Positions 1 through 34,349 of a stretch of 42,748 nt of DNA are shown piece after piece. The notes beneath the pieces were generated by a model. The model had not been told where the DNA came from and did no database searches. It was given only the letters and a program-made list of their open reading frames with translations. Source of the stretch: a virus. Its lineage: Duplodnaviria > Heunggongvirae > Uroviricota > Caudoviricetes. How positions within the stretch are numbered: the stretch's first letter is position 1; every line of letters starts with the position of its first letter. Both the position numbers and the translations under genes were made by a program. Location of the stretch: IMG/VR virus record IMGVR_UViG_2695420651_000024. One strand, given 5' to 3'.

Positions 1-332
1 CCGCCAACAGGCTGGCTGAAATGCAACGGTGCGGCTTTTTCTGCTGAAGAATACCCGGAACTGGCAAAGGCTTACCCGACCAATAAATTGCCTGATTTAC
101 GCGGTGAATTTATTCGTGGCTGGGATGACGGTCGCGGGATTGATACTGGTCGCGCTTTGCTTAATTGGCAGCCACACACAATTTTGGACCATGCACACTA
201 TATGGAATTATGGACAGGGGACGGACTCGCCGCAGGAAGTGCACGGGAAGGAGTAAACCCAGGAATACTGGCTACATACGGTGACGGGGGAATAGTTAAA
301 ACGGACGAACCCGGTCTTAATGTGCCTTCCTC
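1..332. repeat. Inverted repeat, left copy (reverse complement of 3185..3516); runs to the window edge so the true length is unknown
   Basis: Bases 1..36 are the exact reverse complement of 3481..3516. The 75-aa shadow ORFs 29..256(+) and 3261..3488(-) are identical. Identity ends after ggtcttaatgtgccttcc at 332/3185. Confidence 0.85.
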
Positions 333-384
333 ACTACGAGCTCTCGTAGTGTTAAACGTTATGGTGAAATTAGTGAAAATGTAG
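1..384 (+). CDS. Tail fibre protein, C-terminal tail-collar domain (5' end outside window)
   Basis: Frame open from base 1: [48 protein letters not shown]...HTILDHAHY, identical to the C-terminal part of the 3160..3933 fibre. Followed by a tfa gene. Confidence 0.6.
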   Translation, partial: PPTGWLKCNGAAFSAEEYPELAKAYPTNKLPDLRGEFIRGWDDGRGIDTGRALLNWQPHTILDHAHYMELWTGDGLAAGSAREGVNPGILATYGDGGIVKTDEPGLNVPSSLRALVVLNVMVKLVKM

Positions 385-436
385 GTACAGAAACTCGTCC
401 TCGTAACATCGCTTTTAATTATATCGTAAGGGCCGC

Positions 437-1042
437 ATGATGAATAAAGCTGTATTAAATAGCGAACTCATCACCACAAAGGCGGGAGACATTACCGTTT
501 ACAATTATGATGGTGAGACACGGGAATATATTTCCACATCAACTGAATATCTTGCTGTGGGTGTCGGTATCCCGGCATGTTCCTGTTTAGATGCTCCTGG
601 CTCATATAAAGCTGGTTATGCAATTTGCCGTTCTGCAGATTTTAACTCATGGGAATATGTGCCAGACCATCGCGGTGAAACGGTCTATAGCACTGAAACA
701 GGAGAATCAAAAGAAATCACAGCTCCGGGTGATTACCCTGAAAATACAACCACTATCGCTCCATTAACGCCATACGATAAATGGGATGGTGAGAAATGGG
801 TGACCGATACTGAGGCACAGCATAGCGCAGCAGTCGAAGCGGCAGAAGCACAGCGTCAGTCACTGATTGATGCTGCAATGGCTTCCATTAGTCTGATTCA
901 ACTGAAATTACAGGCCGGGCGGAAGCTGACGCAGGCAGAAACAACCCGGCTTAACGCTGTGCTGGATTACATTGACGCGGTGACTGCAACAGATACCAGC
1001 ACCGCGCCGGATGTCATCTGGCCTGAACTGCCGGAGGCGTAG
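437..1042 (+). CDS. tfa: Tail fibre assembly protein (Tfa)
   Basis: 201 aa; typical Tfa C-terminus ...TAPDVIWPELPEA; directly downstream of the fibre gene. Confidence 0.75.
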   Translation: MMNKAVLNSELITTKAGDITVYNYDGETREYISTSTEYLAVGVGIPACSCLDAPGSYKAGYAICRSADFNSWEYVPDHRGETVYSTETGESKEITAPGDYPENTTTIAPLTPYDKWDGEKWVTDTEAQHSAAVEAAEAQRQSLIDAAMASISLIQLKLQAGRKLTQAETTRLNAVLDYIDAVTATDTSTAPDVIWPELPEA

Positions 1043-1433
1043 GCCATTCAATATCTGGAGCACTGGAGATATCAACCAGTTCCAGTGCGTCCAGATAATC
1101 CAGCCATAAATTATATTGTTCCAGCTCGTCACCTTTCAGACGACCAATAGCGGCTTTACCAGGCCATTGCCTGCTATTCATGTGCTCGTTGGCTTCATTA
1201 ATAAGTTTTCCTTTTTTCAACTCTGCCAATGCAATAAGGTTTTCTTTTGATAAAGGTGGTTGCTCTGTCAAAACCGGATATCCCTCCTGATTGCTGACTA
1301 TTTTCATGCCATTATCCTGACCATCCAGTAGTGACAGCCATTCATCCGTGGTTATCTCAACAGCATCTGAAGGTGCTTTATTTAAATCGGTAAAAAAACC
1401 ATTTTCTTTTTGTGAATAGAAGTATCTGTCCAT
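1014..1433 (-). CDS. Alternative tail fibre assembly protein (Tfa') of the invertible cassette
   Basis: 139 aa; C-terminal SSAPDIEWPTPP motif; convergent with tfa and overlapping its 3' end, as in e14 tfaP/tfaE and Mu U/U'. Confidence 0.7.
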   Translation of the reverse strand: MDRYFYSQKENGFFTDLNKAPSDAVEITTDEWLSLLDGQDNGMKIVSNQEGYPVLTEQPPLSKENLIALAELKKGKLINEANEHMNSRQWPGKAAIGRLKGDELEQYNLWLDYLDALELVDISSAPDIEWPTPPAVQAR

Positions 1434-1436
1434 TTA

Positions 1437-1784
1437 TCAATCTCCAAAAGCAATCCAGTAAGCAAAAGGATTTACTCCTTGCTCAGTCACAGATGACATC
1501 AGGGAAAATTGCGATGGTGAAACAGGTAATGCTGCAAAACTAACCATTGTTGACACACCTGACCGTGCATTATCGTACGATGCAACAACACAATAATTGG
1601 TATTGCTGAAAGATATCGGCAGGGTGATATTTACAGGTGAGCCTAATGGCCCTGATGCTGATATTCCCATTTGAATGATGGTTCCATCAGGCAATTTTCT
1701 CCAGCGATTAGAACTCGGATTTCTTTTCCAGGCTGACATATCCGGTATCTGATTTTCTCCTGTACCCACATCCCTTTTCGCCGC
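1437..1784 (-). CDS. Promoterless alternative tail-fibre C-terminal segment (Sv'-like), expressed only after inversion
   Basis: Open frame (track ORF 1437..1838) with no plausible own start; it begins at the crossover site next to the invertase, the arrangement seen in Mu G / e14 P segments. Confidence 0.5.
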   Translation of the reverse strand, partial: AAKRDVGTGENQIPDMSAWKRNPSSNRWRKLPDGTIIQMGISASGPLGSPVNITLPISFSNTNYCVVASYDNARSGVSTMVSFAALPVSPSQFSLMSSVTEQGVNPFAYWIAFGD

Positions 1785-1810
1785 TTCTCCCAAACCAACG
1801 TTTATGAAAA
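1785..1810. other. Putative Pin/Gin/Hin-type inversion crossover site
   Basis: TTCTCCCAAACCAACGTTTATGAAAA matches the hix/gix/pix pattern TTnnnnAAAACCnnGGTTTnnnnAA at most core positions; lies between the Sv' segment and the invertase gene. Confidence 0.45.
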
Positions 1811-1865
1811 TGCAGAGATAACGGGCAACTGGCATCATCTCCGGTTTTTATTCAGGGGATCCATC

Positions 1866-2419
1866 ATGCTTATTGGCTATGTACGCGTATCAACAAATGA
1901 CCAGAACACCGATCTGCAACGTAATGCACTGAACTGCGCGGGATGTGAGCGGTTTTTTGAGGATAAAATCAGTGGCACTAAGTCCGACAGACCGGGGCTT
2001 AAAAAACTGCTCAGGACACTATCGGCAGGAGACACTCTGGTTGTCTGGAAGCTGGACAGGTTGGGGCGCAGTATGCGGCATCTTGTTACGCTGATAGAAG
2101 AGTTGCGTCAGCGTGGCGTGAATTTCCGAAGCCTGACTGACAGTATTGATACCAGCACCCCAATGGCCGTTTCTTTTTTCATGTCATGGGTGCCCTGGCT
2201 GAAATGGAGCGTGAACTGATTGTTGAACGAACAAAAGCTGGACTGGAAGCTGCTCGCGCACAGGGACGAATTGGCGGTCGCCGTCCCAAACTTTCATCAG
2301 AACAATGGGCGCAGGCCGGGCGACTAATTGCATCAGGCGTTCCTCGCCAGAATGTGGAGATCATCTATGATGTTGGCGTATCGACTTTGTATAAGAAGTT
2401 TCCGGTCGGAGATAAATGA
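1866..2419 (+). pseudogene. pin: Serine DNA invertase (Pin/Gin/Hin family) disrupted by a frameshift
   Basis: N-terminal MLIGYVRVSTNDQNTDLQRNAL...VVWKLDRLGRSM (catalytic Ser region) in one frame (1866..2219); C-terminal GALAEMERELIVERTKAG...GRIGGRRPKL...YDVGVSTLYKK in the next frame (2186..2419). The switch is at about 2163..2170, within ccaatggccgtttc. Confidence 0.8.
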
Positions 2420-2499
2420 AACCGTAGCACGTCGTATGCAAGAACGTGCCACGGCTGGCTGATAAGCTTGTAAAAATATTGAACAGGGAGTGGAGCATT

Positions 2500-3147
2500 C
2501 TATGAAGCTAATTTGTTTAATTTCATTTGTAGTGACTTTACTTCTTGGTCGATAATGTCGAATCCCTTATTGACAGCATCTCTTAGCTCTGCATCAATAT
2601 TTTTTATCCCTTGAGCATAATCTACCATTACATTTATTTTTGCATCATGTAATCTCTTATACATGGTTTTATCTTTGTTATTGTCTGCCATGCCAATAAG
2701 GATTTTTTCATAATCCTCAATGAGTTTGTTGTTTCCTTTAAATGATTGTATTAATGAGCGTGAATATGTGTATATGTTAATTATTGAGTCTCTAGCAGAA
2801 TCATTTAGTTTTGCAATGACATTCGCATTTTGCTCATAGAATGTGAAATTATCATCCCCTACAGGGAATGTGAGAATCAACATTTGTCCCGGTTTTATAT
2901 TATCAATGTGTGTTTTCATCCTTTTATTATATAAATTGATTAGGGTGAAAACTTCTCCCTTAACTCCTTTTAATACTGAAAGTTGTAATTCAAGGGATTC
3001 TCTTTCTGTCTCTACTTTAGACAGCTTAGCTTGTTGGGTAACTCCTTTTAGGGTAAACCATCCGCCAATAAGAGTACCAACTAGAGCTGTGAGGGAGGAG
3101 GATAACCATCCAGGTATGCTATTTAAAAGATTACTAAATTCACTCAT
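2500..3147 (-). CDS. Hypothetical membrane-anchored coiled-coil protein on a low-GC insert
   Basis: 215 aa; one N-terminal TM helix (LLNSIPGWLSSSLTALVGTLIGGWFTL) then K/E/N-rich helical region; DNA visibly AT-rich compared with flanks; sits where a tfa gene would normally follow the fibre gene. Confidence 0.5.
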   Translation of the reverse strand: MSEFSNLLNSIPGWLSSSLTALVGTLIGGWFTLKGVTQQAKLSKVETERESLELQLSVLKGVKGEVFTLINLYNKRMKTHIDNIKPGQMLILTFPVGDDNFTFYEQNANVIAKLNDSARDSIINIYTYSRSLIQSFKGNNKLIEDYEKILIGMADNNKDKTMYKRLHDAKINVMVDYAQGIKNIDAELRDAVNKGFDIIDQEVKSLQMKLNKLAS

Positions 3148-3159
3148 TATAAGTACTCG

Positions 3160-3933
3160 CTAATATTGAACGATATATATATCAGAGGAAGGCACATTAA
3201 GACCGGGTTCGTCCGTTTTAACTATTCCCCCGTCACCGTATGTAGCCAGTATTCCTGGGTTTACTCCTTCCCGTGCACTTCCTGCGGCGAGTCCGTCCCC
3301 TGTCCATAATTCCATATAGTGTGCATGGTCCAAAATTGTGTGTGGCTGCCAATTAAGCAAAGCGCGACCAGTATCAATCCCGCGACCGTCATCCCAGCCA
3401 CGAATAAATTCACCGCGTAAATCAGGCAATTTATTGGTCGGGTAAGCCTTTGCCAGTTCCGGGTATTCTTCAGCAGAAAAAGCCGCACCGTTGCATTTCA
3501 GCCAGCCTGTTGGCGGTGTGACTGAAGGCCACGGAACAGGCACACCAACAGGTAATGCAGAACCTTCTCCCAAACCAAGGTTTTCGAGAGCCGTTTGCAC
3601 AGTGCCATCCGATTTGATATCGCCAAACGGATTCTTGCGGCTCAGGTATTCAACAGCAAACCCCGATCCCAGCAATTCAACAAAACCGGGCAGATCACCA
3701 TTATCAAGCACATCCCGTTGCGTTTTGTCACTTACAAACTGGGCCAGAGCTGCAGCAATAAAGCTGGCCTGTCGAATGGCTTTGTTCACCTGCGCACTGG
3801 ATGCTTTCCCTGCTGTAAATCCGGATAAAAGCGCAGGCAACGCTTCCCATTCCTCCTGCGACATAACATTGGCATTTCGATCAGTTGCAAACGCTTTAAA
3901 GTCATTTTTCGCCATCAGAGTAATACTCCCCAT
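3160..3933 (-). CDS. Tail fibre protein with tail-collar C-terminal domain
   Basis: 257 aa; last gene of the baseplate operon; C-terminal ~110 aa identical to the left-edge fibre fragment (inverted repeat). Confidence 0.7.
3185..3516. repeat. Inverted repeat, right copy (reverse complement of 1..332)
   Basis: See left copy; the identical sequence encodes the C-terminal domain of the 3160..3933 fibre. Confidence 0.85.
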
Positions 3934-5791: not shown

Positions 5792-6144
5792 TACGCCTCC
5801 GATTTAACAGTCGTTATTCCATAGAGAGTGTCGATTTCAGCGGAAAACATGACACGTCGGGTCGTGGTATCCACCGTCGTATTGAAAGAGAGGATTGATT
5901 TAACGCCCCGCGTTTCGAGGATGCGCTTACGGATCGCCAGGTTGTAGGTTTCCGGCTTCTGCTTACCGAGCACAGACTGGATCCACGGGGTCCCTTCGGT
6001 GGTGTCGAGAAACCATTGCCCATACCACAATTCAAATCGCGTTTTTACCGCCTGCGCCACGGCCTCCGGTGAGTTAATCAGCCAGGTGTCATCACCGCTG
6101 CCAAAGGTGTAATCGCCATCGGCGTCTTCACGTCTGTATCGCAT
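5791..6144 (-). CDS. Baseplate protein, GpW/gp25-like (Mu gp46-like)
   Basis: 117 aa; start overlaps the stop of the upstream gene; conserved position. Confidence 0.5.
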   Translation of the reverse strand: MRYRREDADGDYTFGSGDDTWLINSPEAVAQAVKTRFELWYGQWFLDTTEGTPWIQSVLGKQKPETYNLAIRKRILETRGVKSILSFNTTVDTTTRRVMFSAEIDTLYGITTVKSEA

Positions 6145-6896
6145 CAGTTTACCCTATCGGTATTGCTTCCACCGCGCTGAACACCGCCATGAGTGTGCGT
6201 ATCATCGATTGGCTTGCCGTTAGCCTTCACGCTCCCCAAAAACTCAACAGCACCAGTGATTTTTGAAGCCACACCAGAAACCACAGACCCCACCATGCCC
6301 CCCATCCAGGTTAACAGGCCATGAATGGTTACTTTCTCAGAAAAATCAGCCAGAGGGGCAACCACATCAAGACCACCCGGAGCGACAATTTTAATTTTCC
6401 TGGTATCAGGATTAAGCTCAAAATAGGTGCTGCCGTCATCACTACGCAACTGTGTGGCACTGGTATTAATACCGCTAATCCTCCTTGCCTGCGACTGGGG
6501 ACCGACAATACAAAACGCATCCGATAAATCATGCATTCTGTCATCGACCGTCTCCTGTATCCCGCCACTCTGCCACCAGAAATCGATGCAGCGATCGGCA
6601 AAAATCACCAGGCATTCATCGCCGGCTTTTACCGGGAAAGTTAACGTGCAGCCGCCGCCGCGCGGAAATACCACCGGCACATCCACCAGCAGCGGGTAAT
6701 TTTTGGTTACGCGGTTGCCGTCGTTGTCGGTTTCAACCGAACGAATAGCAGGCTGCACAACCGCCGTCACCGCGTCAGGATCGAATGACTGAACGATGCC
6801 AGGCAAAGCGACGCGGATCTGGTTCTTTGTGGTTTCCCGCTCGGATTTGAATGTTTCGGCAAGGTCGCCGCTACGAGTCTGGTCTGATATGGCCAT
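6144..6896 (-). CDS. Baseplate spike/assembly protein (Mu gp45-like)
   Basis: Start taken at the internal ATG at 6896, which has AGGAG 7 nt upstream (product MAISDQTRSGD...); PGIVQSFDP...VVFP...GDECLVIF...RCIDFWW resembles the gp45/gp138 N-terminal domain. Confidence 0.6.
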   Translation of the reverse strand: MAISDQTRSGDLAETFKSERETTKNQIRVALPGIVQSFDPDAVTAVVQPAIRSVETDNDGNRVTKNYPLLVDVPVVFPRGGGCTLTFPVKAGDECLVIFADRCIDFWWQSGGIQETVDDRMHDLSDAFCIVGPQSQARRISGINTSATQLRSDDGSTYFELNPDTRKIKIVAPGGLDVVAPLADFSEKVTIHGLLTWMGGMVGSVVSGVASKITGAVEFLGSVKANGKPIDDTHTHGGVQRGGSNTDRVN

Positions 6897-26407: not shown

Positions 26408-28563
26408 CAAACCTTGCATTTTTTCCCCCCAATTCGCCTTTGGGCACGCTTATACCCGCAATTTTGCAAAACATTACTAATTCGCATTTCTTCGCGTTTT
26501 CCGATGCGGTCAGGATTTAGCCCAATCGCATCACGCAAAACATCACTTGCGCGTAAAAATTCGCAATTTCGCGGAAGTTCATTAGTCATCAGGTCGGGCG
26601 TGTCGAGCCATTTCTCTACCGTTTCAAGCCAAGCATCCTTGATGGTGTACTGTTCATGGACACTCGCTGCCAGTTGTTCAGCCTCACGGAACTGGATACC
26701 CCCCAGACGCTGAAACACCTCACGAGCCTCAGCCCAAAGTAAAAGGAGATCTCTTTTTATCGCTTTCACGTCGACTTTCGACACTTCCACGGGGAGCCAG
26801 CGACGGTTACCAGTCTTGTCCGCAAGGAATTCGTCCTCATTAGTGGTACCAACGAACACCAGGCGACGAGGAAACTGGGTGGCGAACTCCCGGTATTTCG
26901 GGATCCAGTTTTCGTGAGTACGCGTCACAAACGCTTTGATTGACTCCAGCTCTTTGGTATTAAGCCCGCGCAGTTCACCAATCTCTGCCACCAGCCGACC
27001 ACGCATTTTTCGAGCGAGATCATCGTCTTTTTCGGCAAAAGAGATTTCAGTAAAAAACGCAGGATCAGGGCTCAGTGCCTCCACTCCGGAAGACTTACCG
27101 CAGCCCTGCGGACCAACGAGGATCGGCACCATATCCGCTTTGATGCCTGGCTCCAGTACTCGCCCCGCCAACGCGGTCCACATGTACATAGACACCGCAC
27201 GGGTATAAGGCGTGTCGGCGGTACCGAAGTGCGTATGGTAGAAACATTCGATGCGCGGCACGCCATCCCACTCCAGTCCGTTCAGCCAGGTGATCGCTGA
27301 ATCGAATGGTTGTTCATCGGCTGCAAGTAACACCACATCGCGAATAAGTTCACGGCCAACAGGTTTAAATCCCCGCTTTTCCATCGTGATGCGCAGGCGC
27401 GCATAATCCGCATCGGTGAATGCCCGCCATTGTCCGGATCCTGCCGGGGCAAACATGATTTCGTCGCGGAACTGGTCAAAGCGAATATCGATGTCCACAA
27501 AATCAGAGCGTACTACTGCTTTGGCTGCATTGCTGATGGTTGCCTCGATACGCCCCCATTTATCACGCTCGAAAGCAGGCAGCGGTAAAGGTTCCGCCAC
27601 TTCGATGCTGGTCAGATCTTCGAAATCGTCGTTGCGGATCCCGATGGCATTCAGGAAATCTCCGTCATCACGATGCGCGCAACTGGCATGCAGGCATTTA
27701 AAATGCCCCTGCTCAAAGCCTGCGGTTCCCGCAGGAAAATAAACTGTGCTTGTTGGATCGCCTCCGCTACTGTGGCCGTCTTCAAACGGACAGCGGATAT
27801 ATCGTTCACCGTTTGCGCCATCCAGCAGCGTCCAGCCATTGGCATCAAGATATTCAGCTGTATCATCCGTCGCGCCGGGCGTGAATGCTGAACGGTCGCG
27901 CATCTTCGTGTTGCCCGCTTCGGTGGTTACCGACACAGGGAGTTGTTCAGCCAGGCGCTGCCACAGCGTTTCAAGCTGCTCACCTGTAATAGCCGGAGGT
28001 TCATCCGGCAAACCACCGTCCCATTCAATACGCGCGCCGCTGCTGTGCGTACCACAGGCAACGAACTGCTGCCCGTTCGCCAGCAACTCGATAATGCCCA
28101 TATCCCCCGCCAGGCGATGGATACGCTTACGGAAATCACCATCAACGGCCAGCAGATACAGACACTTATTACTGTTTGCTCGCCAGCGTCGCGGCGGCGA
28201 CTCACCCAGAAGTTGCACAAGTGTTTTGCGAATATCTGCCTGAATGTCTTCATCTTCGCTATCGCAGTCCAGCGCCAGCCAGCCATGGCCTGTACGCACG
28301 CAGATGCCATAATCCGGTTCATTCGACCAGCGGGCAAAATCATGCTCAGTAACAACATGCCCGGTCCATTGAGCAATACCTGTGACCTGGCGGTCCCGGT
28401 TATAGCGACTCGGCGTCTTACCCAACGCTTTCAATTTACTATCAGGGGATATGGTCGCACTGGGGTTACATACAACTGGGAGAAGATGAGCAGTCCGCCC
28501 CAATACCAGGTCGAAATGAAACCACTCATCAGGCGTAGCTCCCCATGGTTTGCTATCGGACAT
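26377..28563 (-). CDS. Replication primase-helicase (primase-polymerase N-domain plus D5/P4-alpha-like NTPase)
   Basis: 728 aa; Walker A VGPQGCGKSS; N-terminal prim-pol-like region; first large gene after the Cro-like gene. Confidence 0.75.
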   Translation of the reverse strand: MSDSKPWGATPDEWFHFDLVLGRTAHLLPVVCNPSATISPDSKLKALGKTPSRYNRDRQVTGIAQWTGHVVTEHDFARWSNEPDYGICVRTGHGWLALDCDSEDEDIQADIRKTLVQLLGESPPRRWRANSNKCLYLLAVDGDFRKRIHRLAGDMGIIELLANGQQFVACGTHSSGARIEWDGGLPDEPPAITGEQLETLWQRLAEQLPVSVTTEAGNTKMRDRSAFTPGATDDTAEYLDANGWTLLDGANGERYIRCPFEDGHSSGGDPTSTVYFPAGTAGFEQGHFKCLHASCAHRDDGDFLNAIGIRNDDFEDLTSIEVAEPLPLPAFERDKWGRIEATISNAAKAVVRSDFVDIDIRFDQFRDEIMFAPAGSGQWRAFTDADYARLRITMEKRGFKPVGRELIRDVVLLAADEQPFDSAITWLNGLEWDGVPRIECFYHTHFGTADTPYTRAVSMYMWTALAGRVLEPGIKADMVPILVGPQGCGKSSGVEALSPDPAFFTEISFAEKDDDLARKMRGRLVAEIGELRGLNTKELESIKAFVTRTHENWIPKYREFATQFPRRLVFVGTTNEDEFLADKTGNRRWLPVEVSKVDVKAIKRDLLLLWAEAREVFQRLGGIQFREAEQLAASVHEQYTIKDAWLETVEKWLDTPDLMTNELPRNCEFLRASDVLRDAIGLNPDRIGKREEMRISNVLQNCGYKRAQRRIGGKKCKVWEPLEPRGTT

Positions 28564-28566
28564 GGG

Positions 28567-28767
28567 TTACACCTTTTGTCTAGCTGTCACTTCCTGAAAA
28601 AGTTTTTCTATCGCACGTACTGTAGAAAAGCGAGGGTCAGAATGAACCCCGGTAAGAAGCCGACTAATAGAAGACTGCTTCACGCCTGCAATTTCGGCAA
28701 TTTGGTTTTGGGTATACCCTGAATCAATCAAGCTTTTGACCATCTCTTGTGGTGTTAGTCCGGACAT
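28567..28767 (-). CDS. cro: Cro-like HTH regulator
   Basis: 66 aa; XRE-type HTH (YTQNQIAEIAGVKQSSISRLL); divergent from the CI-like repressor and heading the minus-strand operon. Confidence 0.6.
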   Translation of the reverse strand: MSGLTPQEMVKSLIDSGYTQNQIAEIAGVKQSSISRLLTGVHSDPRFSTVRAIEKLFQEVTARQKV

Positions 28768-28908
28768 ATTTAAGTCTCCACTTTCGTCTATAGCGCAAAT
28801 TTATACGAAAACGGATTACTCAGCAATACAGCAATTCTATGTCATCCTAGATTAAAATATCCGATAACGCATAATCACCGTCCCTGTATACAACATGGAT
28901 GAATCCAA
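28768..28908. promoter_or_regulatory. Divergent repressor/cro promoter-operator region
   Basis: 141-bp gap between divergent cro-like and cI-like genes; contains GATAACGCATAATC (28863..28876), a motif repeated at 29683..29719. Confidence 0.45.
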
Positions 28909-29583
28909 ATGATTGATACTACCGATATCCTTTCTCAAAACATCAAGTACCTGATGGACAAAGCCAAGATAAGCTCGATAACTGAGCTGGCACGTCGGTT
29001 ACAGCTGAACCAACCAACGCTACACAGGCTGGTATCAGGAGAGGTGAAAGATCCGAAATACGCAACGTTAAAGCAGATCGCCGACTACTTCCACGTGTCA
29101 CCAATAGACTTGGCAGAAAGGAGCCTTCAAGAAATGGAGAAAGAGGACGCGACAGGTATAAAAACGTATATTTCTCTTAGGTTTAATAAAGTACCTGTTT
29201 TGGGAAACACTCAGCTAGGCGTTGGAGGACTTTGGAGCGACACCCAATATTCAGTAGGTAGCAGTGATGGTTTCATATACTGGCCGACAAAGGATGAAGA
29301 TGCATACGCCCTGAAATGTGTTGGTGATTCAATGATGCCTAGAATCAAAGAGGGGGAGTTCGTAATCGTCGAACCCAACCACGACTACACTCCTGGTGAT
29401 GAAGTACTTGTGGTTACCCGGGAAGGTGAGGTCATGGTTAAAACCTTCTTGTTCGAACGCGATGGCCTGTTCCATCTAATGTCTGTAAATGAAGATCATC
29501 CACCAGTCAGAGTACCACGCGAAAACATTGAAAAAATCCATTACGTGGCGGGGATCGCCAAATCCGCGCTACGTATGTACTAA
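28909..29583 (+). CDS. cI: CI-like prophage repressor (HTH plus S24/LexA-type autopeptidase domain)
   Basis: 224 aa; N-terminal HTH (ITELARRLQLNQPTLHRLVSG); C-terminal LKCVGDSMMPRIKEGEFVIVEP (Ser) and a downstream Lys, as in LexA/CI. Confidence 0.8.
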   Translation: MIDTTDILSQNIKYLMDKAKISSITELARRLQLNQPTLHRLVSGEVKDPKYATLKQIADYFHVSPIDLAERSLQEMEKEDATGIKTYISLRFNKVPVLGNTQLGVGGLWSDTQYSVGSSDGFIYWPTKDEDAYALKCVGDSMMPRIKEGEFVIVEPNHDYTPGDEVLVVTREGEVMVKTFLFERDGLFHLMSVNEDHPPVRVPRENIEKIHYVAGIAKSALRMY

Positions 29584-29613
29584 CCTTTACAGTCTGATAA
29601 CTTACTTCTGATC

Positions 29614-29646
29614 AAACCGCTCTCCACAAGGGCGGTTTTCTTATTT
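29614..29646 (+). terminator. Putative intrinsic terminator after the repressor gene
   Basis: AAACCGC...GCGGTTT stem followed by TCTTATTT; the loop is long, so only moderate support. Confidence 0.4.
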
Positions 29647-29667
29647 GCAAAATAATTCATTTTCGTA

Positions 29668-29696
29668 TTGACACAAAATCCCATAACGCATATAAA
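29668..29696 (+). promoter_or_regulatory. Near-consensus sigma70 promoter (TTGACA, 17 nt, TATAAA), overlapped by operator-like repeats
   Basis: -35 TTGACA at 29668..29673, 17-nt spacer, -10 TATAAA at 29691..29696. ATAACGCATATAAA overlaps the -10; the near-palindrome CGCATAATTAATGCG lies at 29705..29719. Confidence 0.5.
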
Positions 29697-30001
29697 TACG
29701 ATATCGCATAATTAATGCGTTTTTTAATACTGGCTCTTTAACAAACTGAACCGCGTGACAGGTAAGCCGCAGTACTCCTGGCAAAACGAAATAGCACCCG
29801 ATGGGATCGAGGTAAGCGCCGAGTCCGTATGCGTACGGTAAGCGTAGAGGACAACACCGCGACAAACTGATAAGTCACGCAAGTTGAAACGCCCCGACGA
29901 TGGGGCGCTTAGTTCCTTTTGGGGTGGGGTGAAGATCAGTCCATTGAGTCAATCCGAAGTTCAGCATCTACCACTACACCACCACCAAAGAGAACTGCTA
30001 A

Positions 30002-30526
30002 TCATCTGGCAGGTTGTAACGGTGCAGGAGTTTTGCCACTGACTTCTATATTTCGGGGAAATTTATATTCAGCGGAGCATTTATGACACTTGAGAATTTT
30101 ATAAGCGGCATTAGAAGTATGGTATTGAAGTATAGACTTCATACCCGACTCATAGCATGTAGTACAAAGATAATGAGGCTTGAACTCAGGATCGTCAGTA
30201 GGCTTCAGTACATAGACCACCGTATTGGTAATCGGGTGGTACATTTCATAGTTCATTTTCTCACTATCCCAATCCTGTTTCTTTTCCAGAAGGGATTCGA
30301 GTTCAACAATGCGCTGTTTAGCTTCGTTCAAAAGCTCCGTTAGTGCGAATTGTCCAGTACGCGCATCAATTAGTTTATCAAGTAGATCGATAGTTTTACT
30401 TTTAACATTGTAATCCACCTGCAACGCATTAACTTCTTTTGCTAAATCAACAGCACCTTTCAAAGCACCACCAGCACTAGTGGCCGCCTCAGTTATACGC
30501 CGTACAAGTCCTTTTTCTTCAGACAT
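30002..30526 (-). CDS. Hypothetical protein with N-terminal coiled coil and C-terminal C4 zinc ribbon
   Basis: 174 aa; CTTC...(x20)...CHKC; GC lower than neighbours; sits in the immunity region beside cI, antisense to the strong plus-strand promoter. Confidence 0.5.
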   Translation of the reverse strand: MSEEKGLVRRITEAATSAGGALKGAVDLAKEVNALQVDYNVKSKTIDLLDKLIDARTGQFALTELLNEAKQRIVELESLLEKKQDWDSEKMNYEMYHPITNTVVYVLKPTDDPEFKPHYLCTTCYESGMKSILQYHTSNAAYKILKCHKCSAEYKFPRNIEVSGKTPAPLQPAR

Positions 30527-30665
30527 CTTAATTCTCTCTAAAACTATAGGGGTAAAGAGATATTAGCCGAATTCTCGCTGTAGGGGTACAGAGAGAGCCA
30601 TCTCGTCTGACGTGGTTAAAAGCAGGCATTCGCTGACATCCAAGTAATTGCTGTGTGTAGCCTTT

Positions 30666-30691
30666 GCCCGCCTCAAGTGACGGGCTTTTTT
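30666..30691 (+). terminator. Putative intrinsic terminator upstream of the early operon
   Basis: GCCCG-(10-nt loop)-CGGGC followed by TTTTTT. Confidence 0.4.
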
Positions 30692-30750
30692 ATGTCTGAA
30701 AGCGCACTCGCAACAGCGTGCTCCCCGATATGAAAAAAGGAATACAACCG

Positions 30751-30900
30751 ATGAAACCTGAATACCTCCATCGACTGACGGGGCGCGATGTTCTCCGTTA
30801 TCGCCGTAAAAACTTCGATTTGATGACCGGTCTGGCCGTTGCCACTGCGCTCGGTCTGATCATCACTTTCATTCTCCTTGTAGCGAGGACCACAGTATGA
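30751..30900 (+). CDS. Small membrane protein (49 aa), first gene of the early operon
   Basis: ATG at 30751 preceded by AAGGA; C-terminal TM (LAVATALGLIITFILLV); stop overlaps the next start (ATGA). Confidence 0.35.
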   Translation: MKPEYLHRLTGRDVLRYRRKNFDLMTGLAVATALGLIITFILLVARTTV

Positions 30901-33719: not shown

Positions 33720-34349
33720 TCACTCAGGAATCTTAATCTTCCTCAATTCTTTATTTAGTTCACAGATCTTCTTCTTAGACGGGAAAGTATCATACATCCA
33801 AAAACCAACAGTCTCTAAAACTATTGTCATAACCATATACACAAGATAATTTAAAAGGCCTTCATTTTGCCCTATGGAAATAATGCAGATAATAGAAAAA
33901 AGGATAAACAGCACAAAACACAGAAAGGAAAACAGACGACTAATAATAAATAAAAAACCTGAAAAATTAACATTGATGAAAAACACTCCGTTATCTTTCT
34001 CTATATAATTCTGAAGCTTAATCACCTGATTTATATACTGTCTTTTTTCTAATCTATTGCAAATGTAAATAACATCACTTCGGTTATAAGAAGATTGCAA
34101 TTTCAGCGCATCACGAATAATTTTATCATTTATTCTTTTTTCTATGGCACTCTTATCCTCCTTATCCAGATAACGTTCATACTTAACTAAATATAAAATT
34201 AACTTCTTGACATATTTAGGCTCTTTATACTTATAATTAAAAATGATCTTTCTTATCCAGACTCCCATAACAATCAAACATGAAAAAATATATCCAGCTA
34301 TTTTCTCCAGATGCTCTGTATGGTCAATCAAGTATTGGATCATATGCAT
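33720..34349 (-). CDS. Hypothetical polytopic membrane protein on a low-GC insert, opposite strand to the early operon
   Basis: 209 aa; TM near the N-terminus, K/E/Y-rich cytoplasmic region, then a long hydrophobic stretch (FSGFLFIISRLFSFLCFVLFILFSIICIISIG) and a further TM; very AT-rich DNA. Confidence 0.5.
   Translation of the reverse strand: MHMIQYLIDHTEHLEKIAGYIFSCLIVMGVWIRKIIFNYKYKEPKYVKKLILYLVKYERYLDKEDKSAIEKRINDKIIRDALKLQSSYNRSDVIYICNRLEKRQYINQVIKLQNYIEKDNGVFFINVNFSGFLFIISRLFSFLCFVLFILFSIICIISIGQNEGLLNYLVYMVMTIVLETVGFWMYDTFPSKKKICELNKELRKIKIPE

Follow-up and report, generated by a model that had tools for sequence, protein, structure and literature searches.

How does a temperate phage carry its early transcription past the first terminator when it relies on neither of the two known means of doing so? 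We address this question for IMG/VR virus record IMGVR_UViG_2695420651_000024, a 42,748-nucleotide (nt) stretch of DNA (42.7 kb, referred to throughout as the window) which comes from a temperate phage of Escherichia coli, and in particular for the interval 29668-30691, between a cI-type repressor gene and the first early genes. Early antitermination in temperate enterobacterial phages is understood in terms of two paradigms, protein N acting with its nut site and the put RNA, and many prophages, lambdoid ones among them, lack both the N gene and a put site, as was noted for phage LLS (PMC12315714). We describe in this interval a conserved leader of ~175 nt (29733-29907), consisting of a boxA, a folded domain and a closing hairpin (P5), that appears to be an undescribed folded RNA and an undescribed variant of the phage processive-antitermination elements. 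As judged from sequence comparisons, it is probably a boxA-linked antitermination leader that works independently of any phage protein, and it is a concrete and widespread candidate for what the N-less, put-less phages use.

The interval is the repressor-controlled, early-left (PL-type) control region of the phage. The order of the surrounding genes, with cro and primase on the minus strand and cI, the cI terminator, the promoter and the early genes on the plus strand (Table 1), mirrors the arrangement of lambda from PRM-cI to PL, and the interval itself is a mosaic of five parts: a promoter, the boxA leader, an accessory gene, a module of the kind found upstream of sieB, and a terminator that resembles the end of the small RNA (sRNA) RprA. 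A first-pass annotation of the sequence had placed here a near-consensus promoter, two hairpins, a minus-strand open reading frame (ORF) and a terminator, all of which we found where it had put them, and it had proposed about 1 kb of structured, non-coding transcript. The longest plus-strand ORF between 29700 and 30718 is indeed one of 86 amino acids (aa) that lies inside the antisense of the minus-strand gene. Only the ~175 nt of the leader are conserved, however, and the remainder of the supposed structured transcript is antisense to an inserted gene that compact relatives lack. The features listed in the first pass were real, but the list contained neither the exact boxA nor the domain folded over a long range, and the terminator was not recognised as RprA-like.

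The boxA leader and its distribution

The leader begins with the 12-mer boxA GCTCTTTAACAA, of which the window contains no other exact copy. The same 12-mer occurs ~30 nt past the P2 promoter of rrnB, and its spacing from the promoter is similar in the phage leader. The 1.1-kb region around the leader is 100% identical in prophages of enterotoxigenic E. coli H10407 and of O103:H2 strain 12009, and phage vB_EcoM-606R2 retains ~95% identity in the conserved flanks (about half of the region) while the middle has been replaced. Beyond these close relatives the leader behaves as a module with sharp boundaries: in E. coli prophages that carry other repressors and promoters, similarity to the window starts exactly at boxA and ends at ~29907-29919. 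True lambdoid prophages with Gam and Bet carry the block at 84% identity, and Yersinia phage YeP4 carries it at ~71% identity, the similarity there also starting at boxA.

The conserved block is present in 104 of 5,426 complete E. coli genomes (~2%), and a pattern scan recovered it from 90 IMG/VR contigs and from genomes of Pseudocitrobacter, Citrobacter and Trabulsiella. The 69 distinct leader sequences fall into four structural types (A to D), and their loci include two unrelated early-gene backbones, one of the DUF2800/DNA-polymerase kind and one of the Gam/Bet lambdoid kind. Covariance model R1, described below, finds exactly one leader copy per locus in all of 94 sources and a single copy in the whole window.

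The lambdoid and type-C leaders are followed by a strong Shine-Dalgarno sequence, GGAG(G), with a mini-ORF and then a hairpin (at 3185-3215 of L002 and at the equivalent places of loci L008, L009, L014, L075, L012, L036 and L076). The mini-ORF consists of ATG, two codons and TAA (MKN, MKH, MKR or MHK) or of a bare ATG-TAG start-stop, and it is present behind a put-type leader as well (L141).

Structure of the leader RNA

The four types share the same architecture, a series of helices leading to a three-way junction, within which whole helices have been replaced. The long-range helix P1 occurs among the types as GCGUGAC/GUCACGC, GCAUGAC/GUCAUGC, GAGUGAC/GUCACUC and GCACUG/CAGUGC, and hairpin P3 occurs as ACC-CGAU...AUCG-A-GGU, GCC-GCGA...UCGC-A-GGC and GCC-GGUA...UACC-A-GGC, the bulged A being kept in every case; the junction strand GGCAAAACGAAAUAGC is nearly invariant. 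Model R1 was built from A3, an ungapped alignment of 49 type-A sequences in which 98.2% of the cells pair, and it scores leaders of type B at ~120 bits, type C at ~90 bits and type D at 26-30 bits. In alignment A4, 97.2% of the cells pair and 28 of 38 pairs show changes on both sides, as compared with 20-39% pairing and 3-6 such pairs in slid controls, these counts being inflated by the fitting of A4 to R1. The compensatory helix replacements are visible in the raw leader sequences as well.

Two other structures were considered and set aside. The default RNAalifold consensus for type A has a different interior, and it was dropped since the structure obtained manually and with ribosum scoring persists through the replacements in types B, C and D. 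A pairing (P0) of boxA with 29883-29888 was not adopted, as 13 sequences disrupt it and covariation is absent.

Exchange of the leader with put and nut-N

What the leader might do is suggested by what occupies its place in other phages. An E. coli 97-3250 prophage has the same early backbone (genes for the 49-aa, 300-aa and DUF2800 proteins) and the same terminator module as the window, together with a different leader, one that is 82% identical to the PL-putL region of HK022 and differs from it by a compensatory swap of GAC...GTC to GTC...GAC. A scan for the put sequence yielded 41 IMG/VR stretches, which reduce to 35 distinct contexts including HK022 itself; 18 of these 35 share with the window both the RprA-like motif and the small early gene downstream. 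The put-type loci use at least three promoter/operator types that are also found with boxA leaders, and the optional modules that come after them (the long hairpin, a second hairpin element and the mini-ORF) are those that come after boxA leaders. In lambdoid prophages of O157 strains, a classical nutL (boxA GCTCTTTAACA together with boxB) takes this place, accompanied by an N gene. On this evidence nut-N, put and the boxA leader resemble cassettes that can replace one another in the space separating PL from the first terminator, and the natural exchanges of put for the leader make the antitermination hypothesis directly testable.

The absence of an evident N-like gene, remarked upon in the first pass, held up under closer inspection: no arginine-rich small protein of the N kind is encoded by a credible gene of the window, and across 91 loci the only protein family that co-occurs near-universally with the leader is the upstream repressor, the first downstream gene varying widely. 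The same annotation had thought a cis-acting, put-like RNA conceivable, and this guess has become the best-supported reading in light of the boxA, the covarying structure and the occupation of the slot by a homolog of HK022 putL in sister phages.

The promoter and its operator repeats

The promoter matches the consensus at 11 of 12 positions and is the sole site with at least 11 matches on either strand of the window, where 0.55 such sites are expected by chance, so that the match alone is not significant. It is raised above chance by operator repeats held in common with the cI/cro region and by the conserved position of the promoter in relatives. A third copy of the 18-nt repeat that spans the spacer, the -10 hexamer and the start lies in the cI/cro intergenic region (28856-28873); the 10-mer ATAACGCATA has exact copies only at 28864 and 29683; and an inverted match links 28803-28826 with 29645-29668, making a second motif common to both control regions. 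A promoter of varying sequence stands at a constant distance upstream of the conserved leader in 90-odd related loci, in every immunity type, and the -10 region GCATATAAAT(A/G)CG is found again in two other related immunity types. The pattern of 18-nt repeats is that expected of OR and OL operators, to which the repressor is predicted to bind. Judged by its setting, downstream of cI on the same strand, past the cI terminator and with operator repeats, the promoter is the analog of PL, a possibility that the first reading of the sequence had raised.

The same reading had entertained the idea of a discrete sRNA ending at the first hairpin (29705-29725). This weak hairpin is altered or lost in relatives that have other immunity regions, and because it is immunity-specific and overlaps an operator repeat we regard it as operator DNA and reject it as a terminator or sRNA end. 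An sRNA of that kind is unlikely, since the hairpin is not a conserved RNA element.

The RprA-like terminator module

A terminator does stand just upstream of the first early gene, as had been noted, and it turns out to be more than a terminator, namely part of a mobile module that is homologous to the 3' part of RprA. The 23-nt core of this module, ATTGCTGTGTGTAG(T/C)CTTTGCCC, is invariant at 22 of its 23 positions among K-12 rprA and six phage and plasmid copies, only the window differing at the remaining position (C for T), and the stems of the terminators covary (GCCCATC, GCCCGCC and GCCCCTC). The Rfam model for RprA (RF00034) matches 30582-30695 with 45.5 bits (E 3.5e-4 at a relaxed threshold), which is below its gathering score of 70, with poor pairing in the 5' stem-loops, and the module has no evident promoter to itself. 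Of 72 distinct leader contexts, 43 have the RprA-like motif downstream, 73-770 nt away, and in the compact relatives the terminator module comes within ~75 nt of the leader and is followed by the first early gene. The phrog_11981 gene, which is the first early gene of the window, comes after the RprA-like terminator in 59 of 91 loci.

In the 97-3250 prophage the same module stands at the end of a zinc-ribbon ORF on the plus strand, and on plasmid pABWA45_1 it ends a hypothetical gene; outside the window, copies of the RprA 3' core with its terminator lie at 2505-2560 of locus L005 and 2500-2548 of locus L007. By its homology the module is a portable 3' end that copies the part of RprA that survives RNase E, and mobile elements could be carrying it as a mimic of RprA. 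Its presence on phages and plasmids is a separate lead on how mobile elements copy the function of a host sRNA.

A proposed mechanism and its alternatives

From the position of the elements, the identity of the boxA and the exchanges with put and nut, we infer that boxA and the folded domain together make RNA polymerase resistant to termination without a phage N protein, so that the leader would do the work that falls to putL in HK022 and to nutL with N in lambda; we put the probability of this reading at roughly 60%. Upon departure of the cI-type repressor from the operator repeats, sigma-70 RNA polymerase would start near 29703 (a predicted position), and the nascent RNA would first expose the rrn-type boxA, a binding site for NusB-NusE that would recruit the other Nus factors. 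The three-way-junction domain of ~130 nt and the closing hairpin would fold next, and the folded domain would complete or stabilise a termination-resistant polymerase with no contribution from a phage protein. The polymerase so modified would cross ~750 nt of untranslated, C-rich RNA antisense to the accessory gene, read through the terminator at 30666-30691 into the early genes and later pass a second antisense gene at 33720-34349. The plus-strand RNA contains the C-rich, G-poor stretches typical of Rho loading sites, and Nus factors bound at a boxA are able to block termination by Rho when N is absent (PMC5725501). In the compact relatives, polymerase that leaves the leader meets the RprA-like terminator directly, ahead of the first early gene, which points to a need for readthrough. 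Two by-products might be expected: antisense transcription might damp the accessory gene, as sas does for sieB of P22, and the transcripts that do stop at the terminator would have the RprA-like domain at their 3' ends and might serve as host-directed sRNAs. If the proposal is true, a bare rrn-type boxA and a folded RNA can render RNA polymerase termination-resistant without any phage protein.

A number of observations weigh against this reading. Complexes of the rrn type are not known to defeat intrinsic terminators efficiently, and a mechanism based on boxA only would not explain passage of the terminator at 30666, which would need either an added activity of the folded domain or a leaky terminator. 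The -10 hexamer is without the usually invariant T at position 6, for which reason a standard promoter scan passed over the site. The single-sequence fold of the leader is no more stable than those of shuffled sequences (z = 0.76), so that the structure rests on covariation, where the A4 counts are subject to the inflation mentioned above. One variant, L057 (6490-6621), has lost the whole of P4 by a deletion between two GGTAAGCG direct repeats and still scores 155 bits; either not every helix is essential or this copy is defective. The leader has no similarity to put in sequence or model, R1 scoring HK022 at only 7-8 bits, which is noise. Rfam 15 contains no match to the leader (in the window at gathering thresholds and in 29590-30760 at E up to 10, where the sub-threshold RprA match was the sole credible one), but it also misses HK022 put, so this absence is weak evidence that the leader is undescribed; a full-text literature search with strings of the leader sequence returned no papers. 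Finally, boxA and Nus factors can repress in some contexts, as at suhB and CKO_00699 (PMC5725501).

The alternatives to the antitermination reading differ in what they would have boxA and the domain do. It has a modest chance of being right that boxA only shields the long untranslated RNA from Rho or chaperones its folding, that the domain has another job (as a stable or processed regulatory RNA or as a 5' cap that confers stability) and that the terminator is leaky: Nus factors prevent Rho termination as stated above, and at rRNA they mainly promote the folding of long-range helices (PMC5725501), P1 being just such a helix over ~120 nt, while the unit from leader to RprA-like terminator is in many relatives ~250-300 nt long, the size of a discrete RNA, and the phage sRNA StxS sets a precedent for a terminated phage leader that acts as an sRNA (PMC7547250). 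This would leave the one-for-one exchange with put in otherwise identical contexts without explanation, and lytic growth needs efficient readthrough, the genes for early replication being placed beyond the terminator. It seems unlikely that the leader is an oversized nut site at which boxA and the domain would recruit an unrecognised analog of N, with the protein dependence known from lambda, P22 and mEp021. A boxA followed by structured RNA is the architecture of nut, divergent N-like proteins exist in non-lambdoid coliphages (mEp021 Gp17, PMC11893012) and many small ORFs of these phages have no assigned function; but the lack of an arginine-rich small protein in a credible gene and the co-occurrence of only the repressor, over 91 loci on two backbones with differing first downstream genes, speak against such a protein, as does the exchange of the leader with put, an element that works without any protein. 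In the compact relatives, moreover, the terminator precedes every early ORF, and no N analog could be made before readthrough.

Very unlikely, in our estimation, is a leader that acts as a negative element, by way of Nus factors at boxA or of a ligand or protein bound to the junction, and attenuates early-left transcription or translation. The nearly invariant junction strands would suit an RNA that binds a ligand or protein, repression by boxA/Nus complexes is known from suhB and a Citrobacter toxin gene (PMC5725501), and the lambdoid versions are followed by the strong Shine-Dalgarno sequence and a mini-ORF of 1-3 codons; the position of the leader, however, equals that of put and nut, both of them positive elements, no alternative pairing of a terminator/antiterminator kind lies beside the domain, and the distance to the terminator is variable, unlike that of the expression platform of a riboswitch. 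That the conserved block instead encodes a small protein on either strand, or that the promoter match is fortuitous with no functional rightward transcript, is highly improbable. Short ORFs do exist (28 aa at 29755-29841 on the plus strand; 46 aa and 74 aa on the minus strand), and the annotation of phage 606R2 lists one of them as a hypothetical protein. The recurrence of the minus-strand ORFs at many loci is simply a consequence of DNA conservation. The types differ in length by amounts not divisible by three, which identifies the block as an RNA and not a small protein gene, and hairpins are replaced with their pairing kept (in P3, CGAU/AUCG, GCGA/UCGC and GGUA/UACC), so that the conservation is of the RNA type and not of the protein type; the promoter, for its part, is found at the same distance in every immunity type.

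A wider formulation of the antitermination reading is offered only tentatively and may well not hold in full. The leader would then represent a third class of phage antiterminator RNA, protein-independent, which captures the host NusB/E-NusG-NusA by means of an rrn boxA and is exchangeable with put and nut-N among enterobacterial phages, and whose terminated by-product would be an sRNA mimicking RprA, by which the regulation of host RpoS and of biofilms would be readjusted upon induction.

The accessory gene and the modules around it

The accessory gene, against which the early-left transcript would run, is absent from the compact relatives and from YeP4, and phage 606R2 has an allele that is 45% identical. 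It is assigned to phrog_1244 and has no family match in PADLOC, Pfam or NCBIfam, for which reason its assignment to a defence system failed; it has no match to SieB either. The 85-bp module that accompanies it resembles the sequence directly upstream of sieB in P22 (82.6% identity), lambda (78.7%) and O157 prophages (~84%). The two copies of CT(A/G)TAGGGGTA in this module (30544-30556 and 30578-30590), which lie 34 nt apart, are conserved in P22, lambda and the O157 prophages, and one of them, on the minus strand, is at the -35 position for the TAATAT candidate. The repeats are candidates for an activator or repressor site or for an unusual promoter. By analogy with sieB, the gene is probably a lysogen-expressed accessory or exclusion gene opposed by PL transcription, and its silencing by an antisense PL transcript is plausible. 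On the minus strand, P5 is followed by TTTCAACTT, and it could also end the transcript of the accessory gene.

Between the leader and the accessory gene lies a long hairpin module that in relatives follows boxA-type and put-type leaders alike. Versions of this module (GUUCCyUUUGGGGUG...CACCACCAAAGnGAAC) also occur in L032, downstream of 5961-6145, and in L005 at 2215-2300. The interior of the L032 hairpin includes a T-arm like that of a transfer RNA (tRNA) and an end of the form ...ACCACCA, in which ARAGORN calls neither a tRNA nor a transfer-messenger RNA; scans for both in the window and in the relatives with the tRNA-like module found none there.

Other features of the early region

The coordinates of the features are collected in Table 1. 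The early operon on the plus strand encodes, in order, the 49-aa membrane protein, a 300-aa protein, DUF2800 and DUF2815 proteins and DNA polymerase, and between the last two a 209-aa gene (33720-34349, minus strand) is the second to lie against the operon, so that transcription from PL must cross a gene in antisense twice. At the end of the cro-primase operon, a Q-type late antiterminator is encoded on the minus strand (25666-26088; Pfam Phage_antitermQ, E 5e-42), and in this phage a Q system coexists with an early region that has no N. A perfect inverted repeat of 332 nt (1-332 and 3185-3516), located at the left end of the window, bounds a segment of 2.85 kb that looks like an invertible segment of the tail-fibre type. 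The Nus-dependent, non-lambdoid mEpimmI phages and the Pas sRNAs were considered and found to be unrelated to this locus.

Table 1. Features of the early-left control region and its neighbours in the window
Feature	Positions	Strand	Description	Energy or score
Primase gene	26377-28563	minus		
cro-like gene	28567-28767	minus	helix-turn-helix (HTH)	
cI-type repressor gene	28909-29583	plus	HTH/S24	
Intrinsic terminator of cI transcript	29614-29638	plus	10-bp stem, then T-rich tail	-13.4 kcal/mol
PL-type promoter	29668-29696	plus	TTGACA (29668-29673), 17-nt spacer, TATAAA (29691-29696)	
Operator-like repeats	29675-29692, 29693-29710		two tandem 18-nt copies over spacer, -10 and start, from repeat comparison	
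Weak hairpin	29705-29725	plus	CGCAT-AATTA-ATGCG + T6; extreme 5' end of transcript, overlaps second operator-like repeat	-4.5 kcal/mol
boxA	29733-29744	plus	GCTCTTTAACAA, identical to boxA of E. coli rrnB leader	12/12
Structured leader domain	29753-29880	plus	~130 nt, three-way junction	197 bits (R1)
Helix P1	29753-29759 with 29874-29880	plus	7 bp, long-range, spans ~120 nt	
P1b, P2, P2b	within 29753-29880	plus	inside P1, closing three-way junction	
Three-way junction sequence element			GGCAAAAC	
Hairpin P3	29796-29813	plus	bulged A	
P4	29816-29845	plus		
Hairpin P5	29890-29907	plus	CGCCCC-GACGAT-GGGGCG; ends conserved leader in types A and B	-12.9 kcal/mol
Long hairpin module	29908-30006	plus	imperfect, GUUCCUUUUGGGGUG...CACCACCAAAGAGAAC	-26.1 kcal/mol
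Accessory gene	30002-30526	minus	174 aa, coiled coil + C-terminal CxxC...CxxC, phrog_1244	E 1.8e-43
sieB-type upstream module	30544-30628		85 bp, two CT(A/G)TAGGGGTA repeats; counterparts in P22 and lambda abut start codon	
-10 candidate	30565-30560	minus	TAATAT	
RprA-3'-like module	30647-30691	plus	ATTGCTGTGTGTAGCCTTTGCCC, then intrinsic terminator	
Terminator	30666-30691	plus	GCCCG...CGGGC + T6; stem 30666-30670 with 30681-30685	-9.8 kcal/mol
First early-left gene	30751-30900	plus	phrog_11981, 49-aa small membrane protein	

Comparison with known systems

One system to which the boxA leader can be likened is putL of HK022. Each follows PL immediately and belongs to a phage that has no N, homologs of putL fill the slot of the leader in sister phages with the same promoters, terminator and early genes, and both would be cis-acting RNAs that let polymerase pass terminators, as we infer for the leader. 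The activity of put is blocked by mutations in the zinc-binding domain encoded by rpoC. put suppresses intrinsic as well as Rho-dependent terminators without proteins, and it is an RNA of ~70 nt with two stems that begins at +3 and has no boxA (PMC9378689), whereas the leader is ~175 nt long, has its boxA ~30 nt into the transcript and forms a long rod capped by a three-way junction. Nus factors are not required for put, and a dependence on them is expected for the leader on account of its boxA.

With nutL and N of lambda and P22 the leader shares the succession of a boxA and structured RNA just past PL, and the nutL-N of the O157 prophages is in the equivalent position and is followed by the same sieB-type cassette. 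The leader differs from lambda nutL in having the full rrn consensus for its boxA, of which the lambda form is a weaker version, and in that the boxA is followed by the 7-bp long-range helix instead of the 15-nt boxB hairpin. The leader of the E. coli rrn operons (boxB-boxA-boxC) has the identical 12-nt boxA at ~30 nt from the start and a long, structured, untranslated RNA downstream, but the sequence past boxA is unrelated, the upstream hairpin of the phage (29705-29719) is immunity-specific and appears to be part of the operator more than a conserved boxB, and the phage element faces an intrinsic terminator.

The neighbouring modules have their own counterparts. In the sieB/esc/sas system of P22, as in the window, a gene lies against PL behind an upstream module (~83% identical between the two), and the PL transcript is necessarily antisense to it, although the gene of the window encodes the phrog_1244 zinc-ribbon protein and not SieB. 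The sieB gene of lambda lies against PL in the same way. The sas RNA is processed from the PL transcript of P22. It is a cis-antisense RNA of 105 nt that switches the translation of sieB (PMC12197685). The RprA-like module corresponds, in its core and covarying terminator, to the 3' domain of RprA that is kept after processing by RNase E (PMC6202311); the 5' two-thirds of RprA are absent from it, and it serves as a portable 3' end for various phage and plasmid genes. An sRNA ending in this module would, like StxS, arise by termination of a phage leader transcript (PMC7547250).

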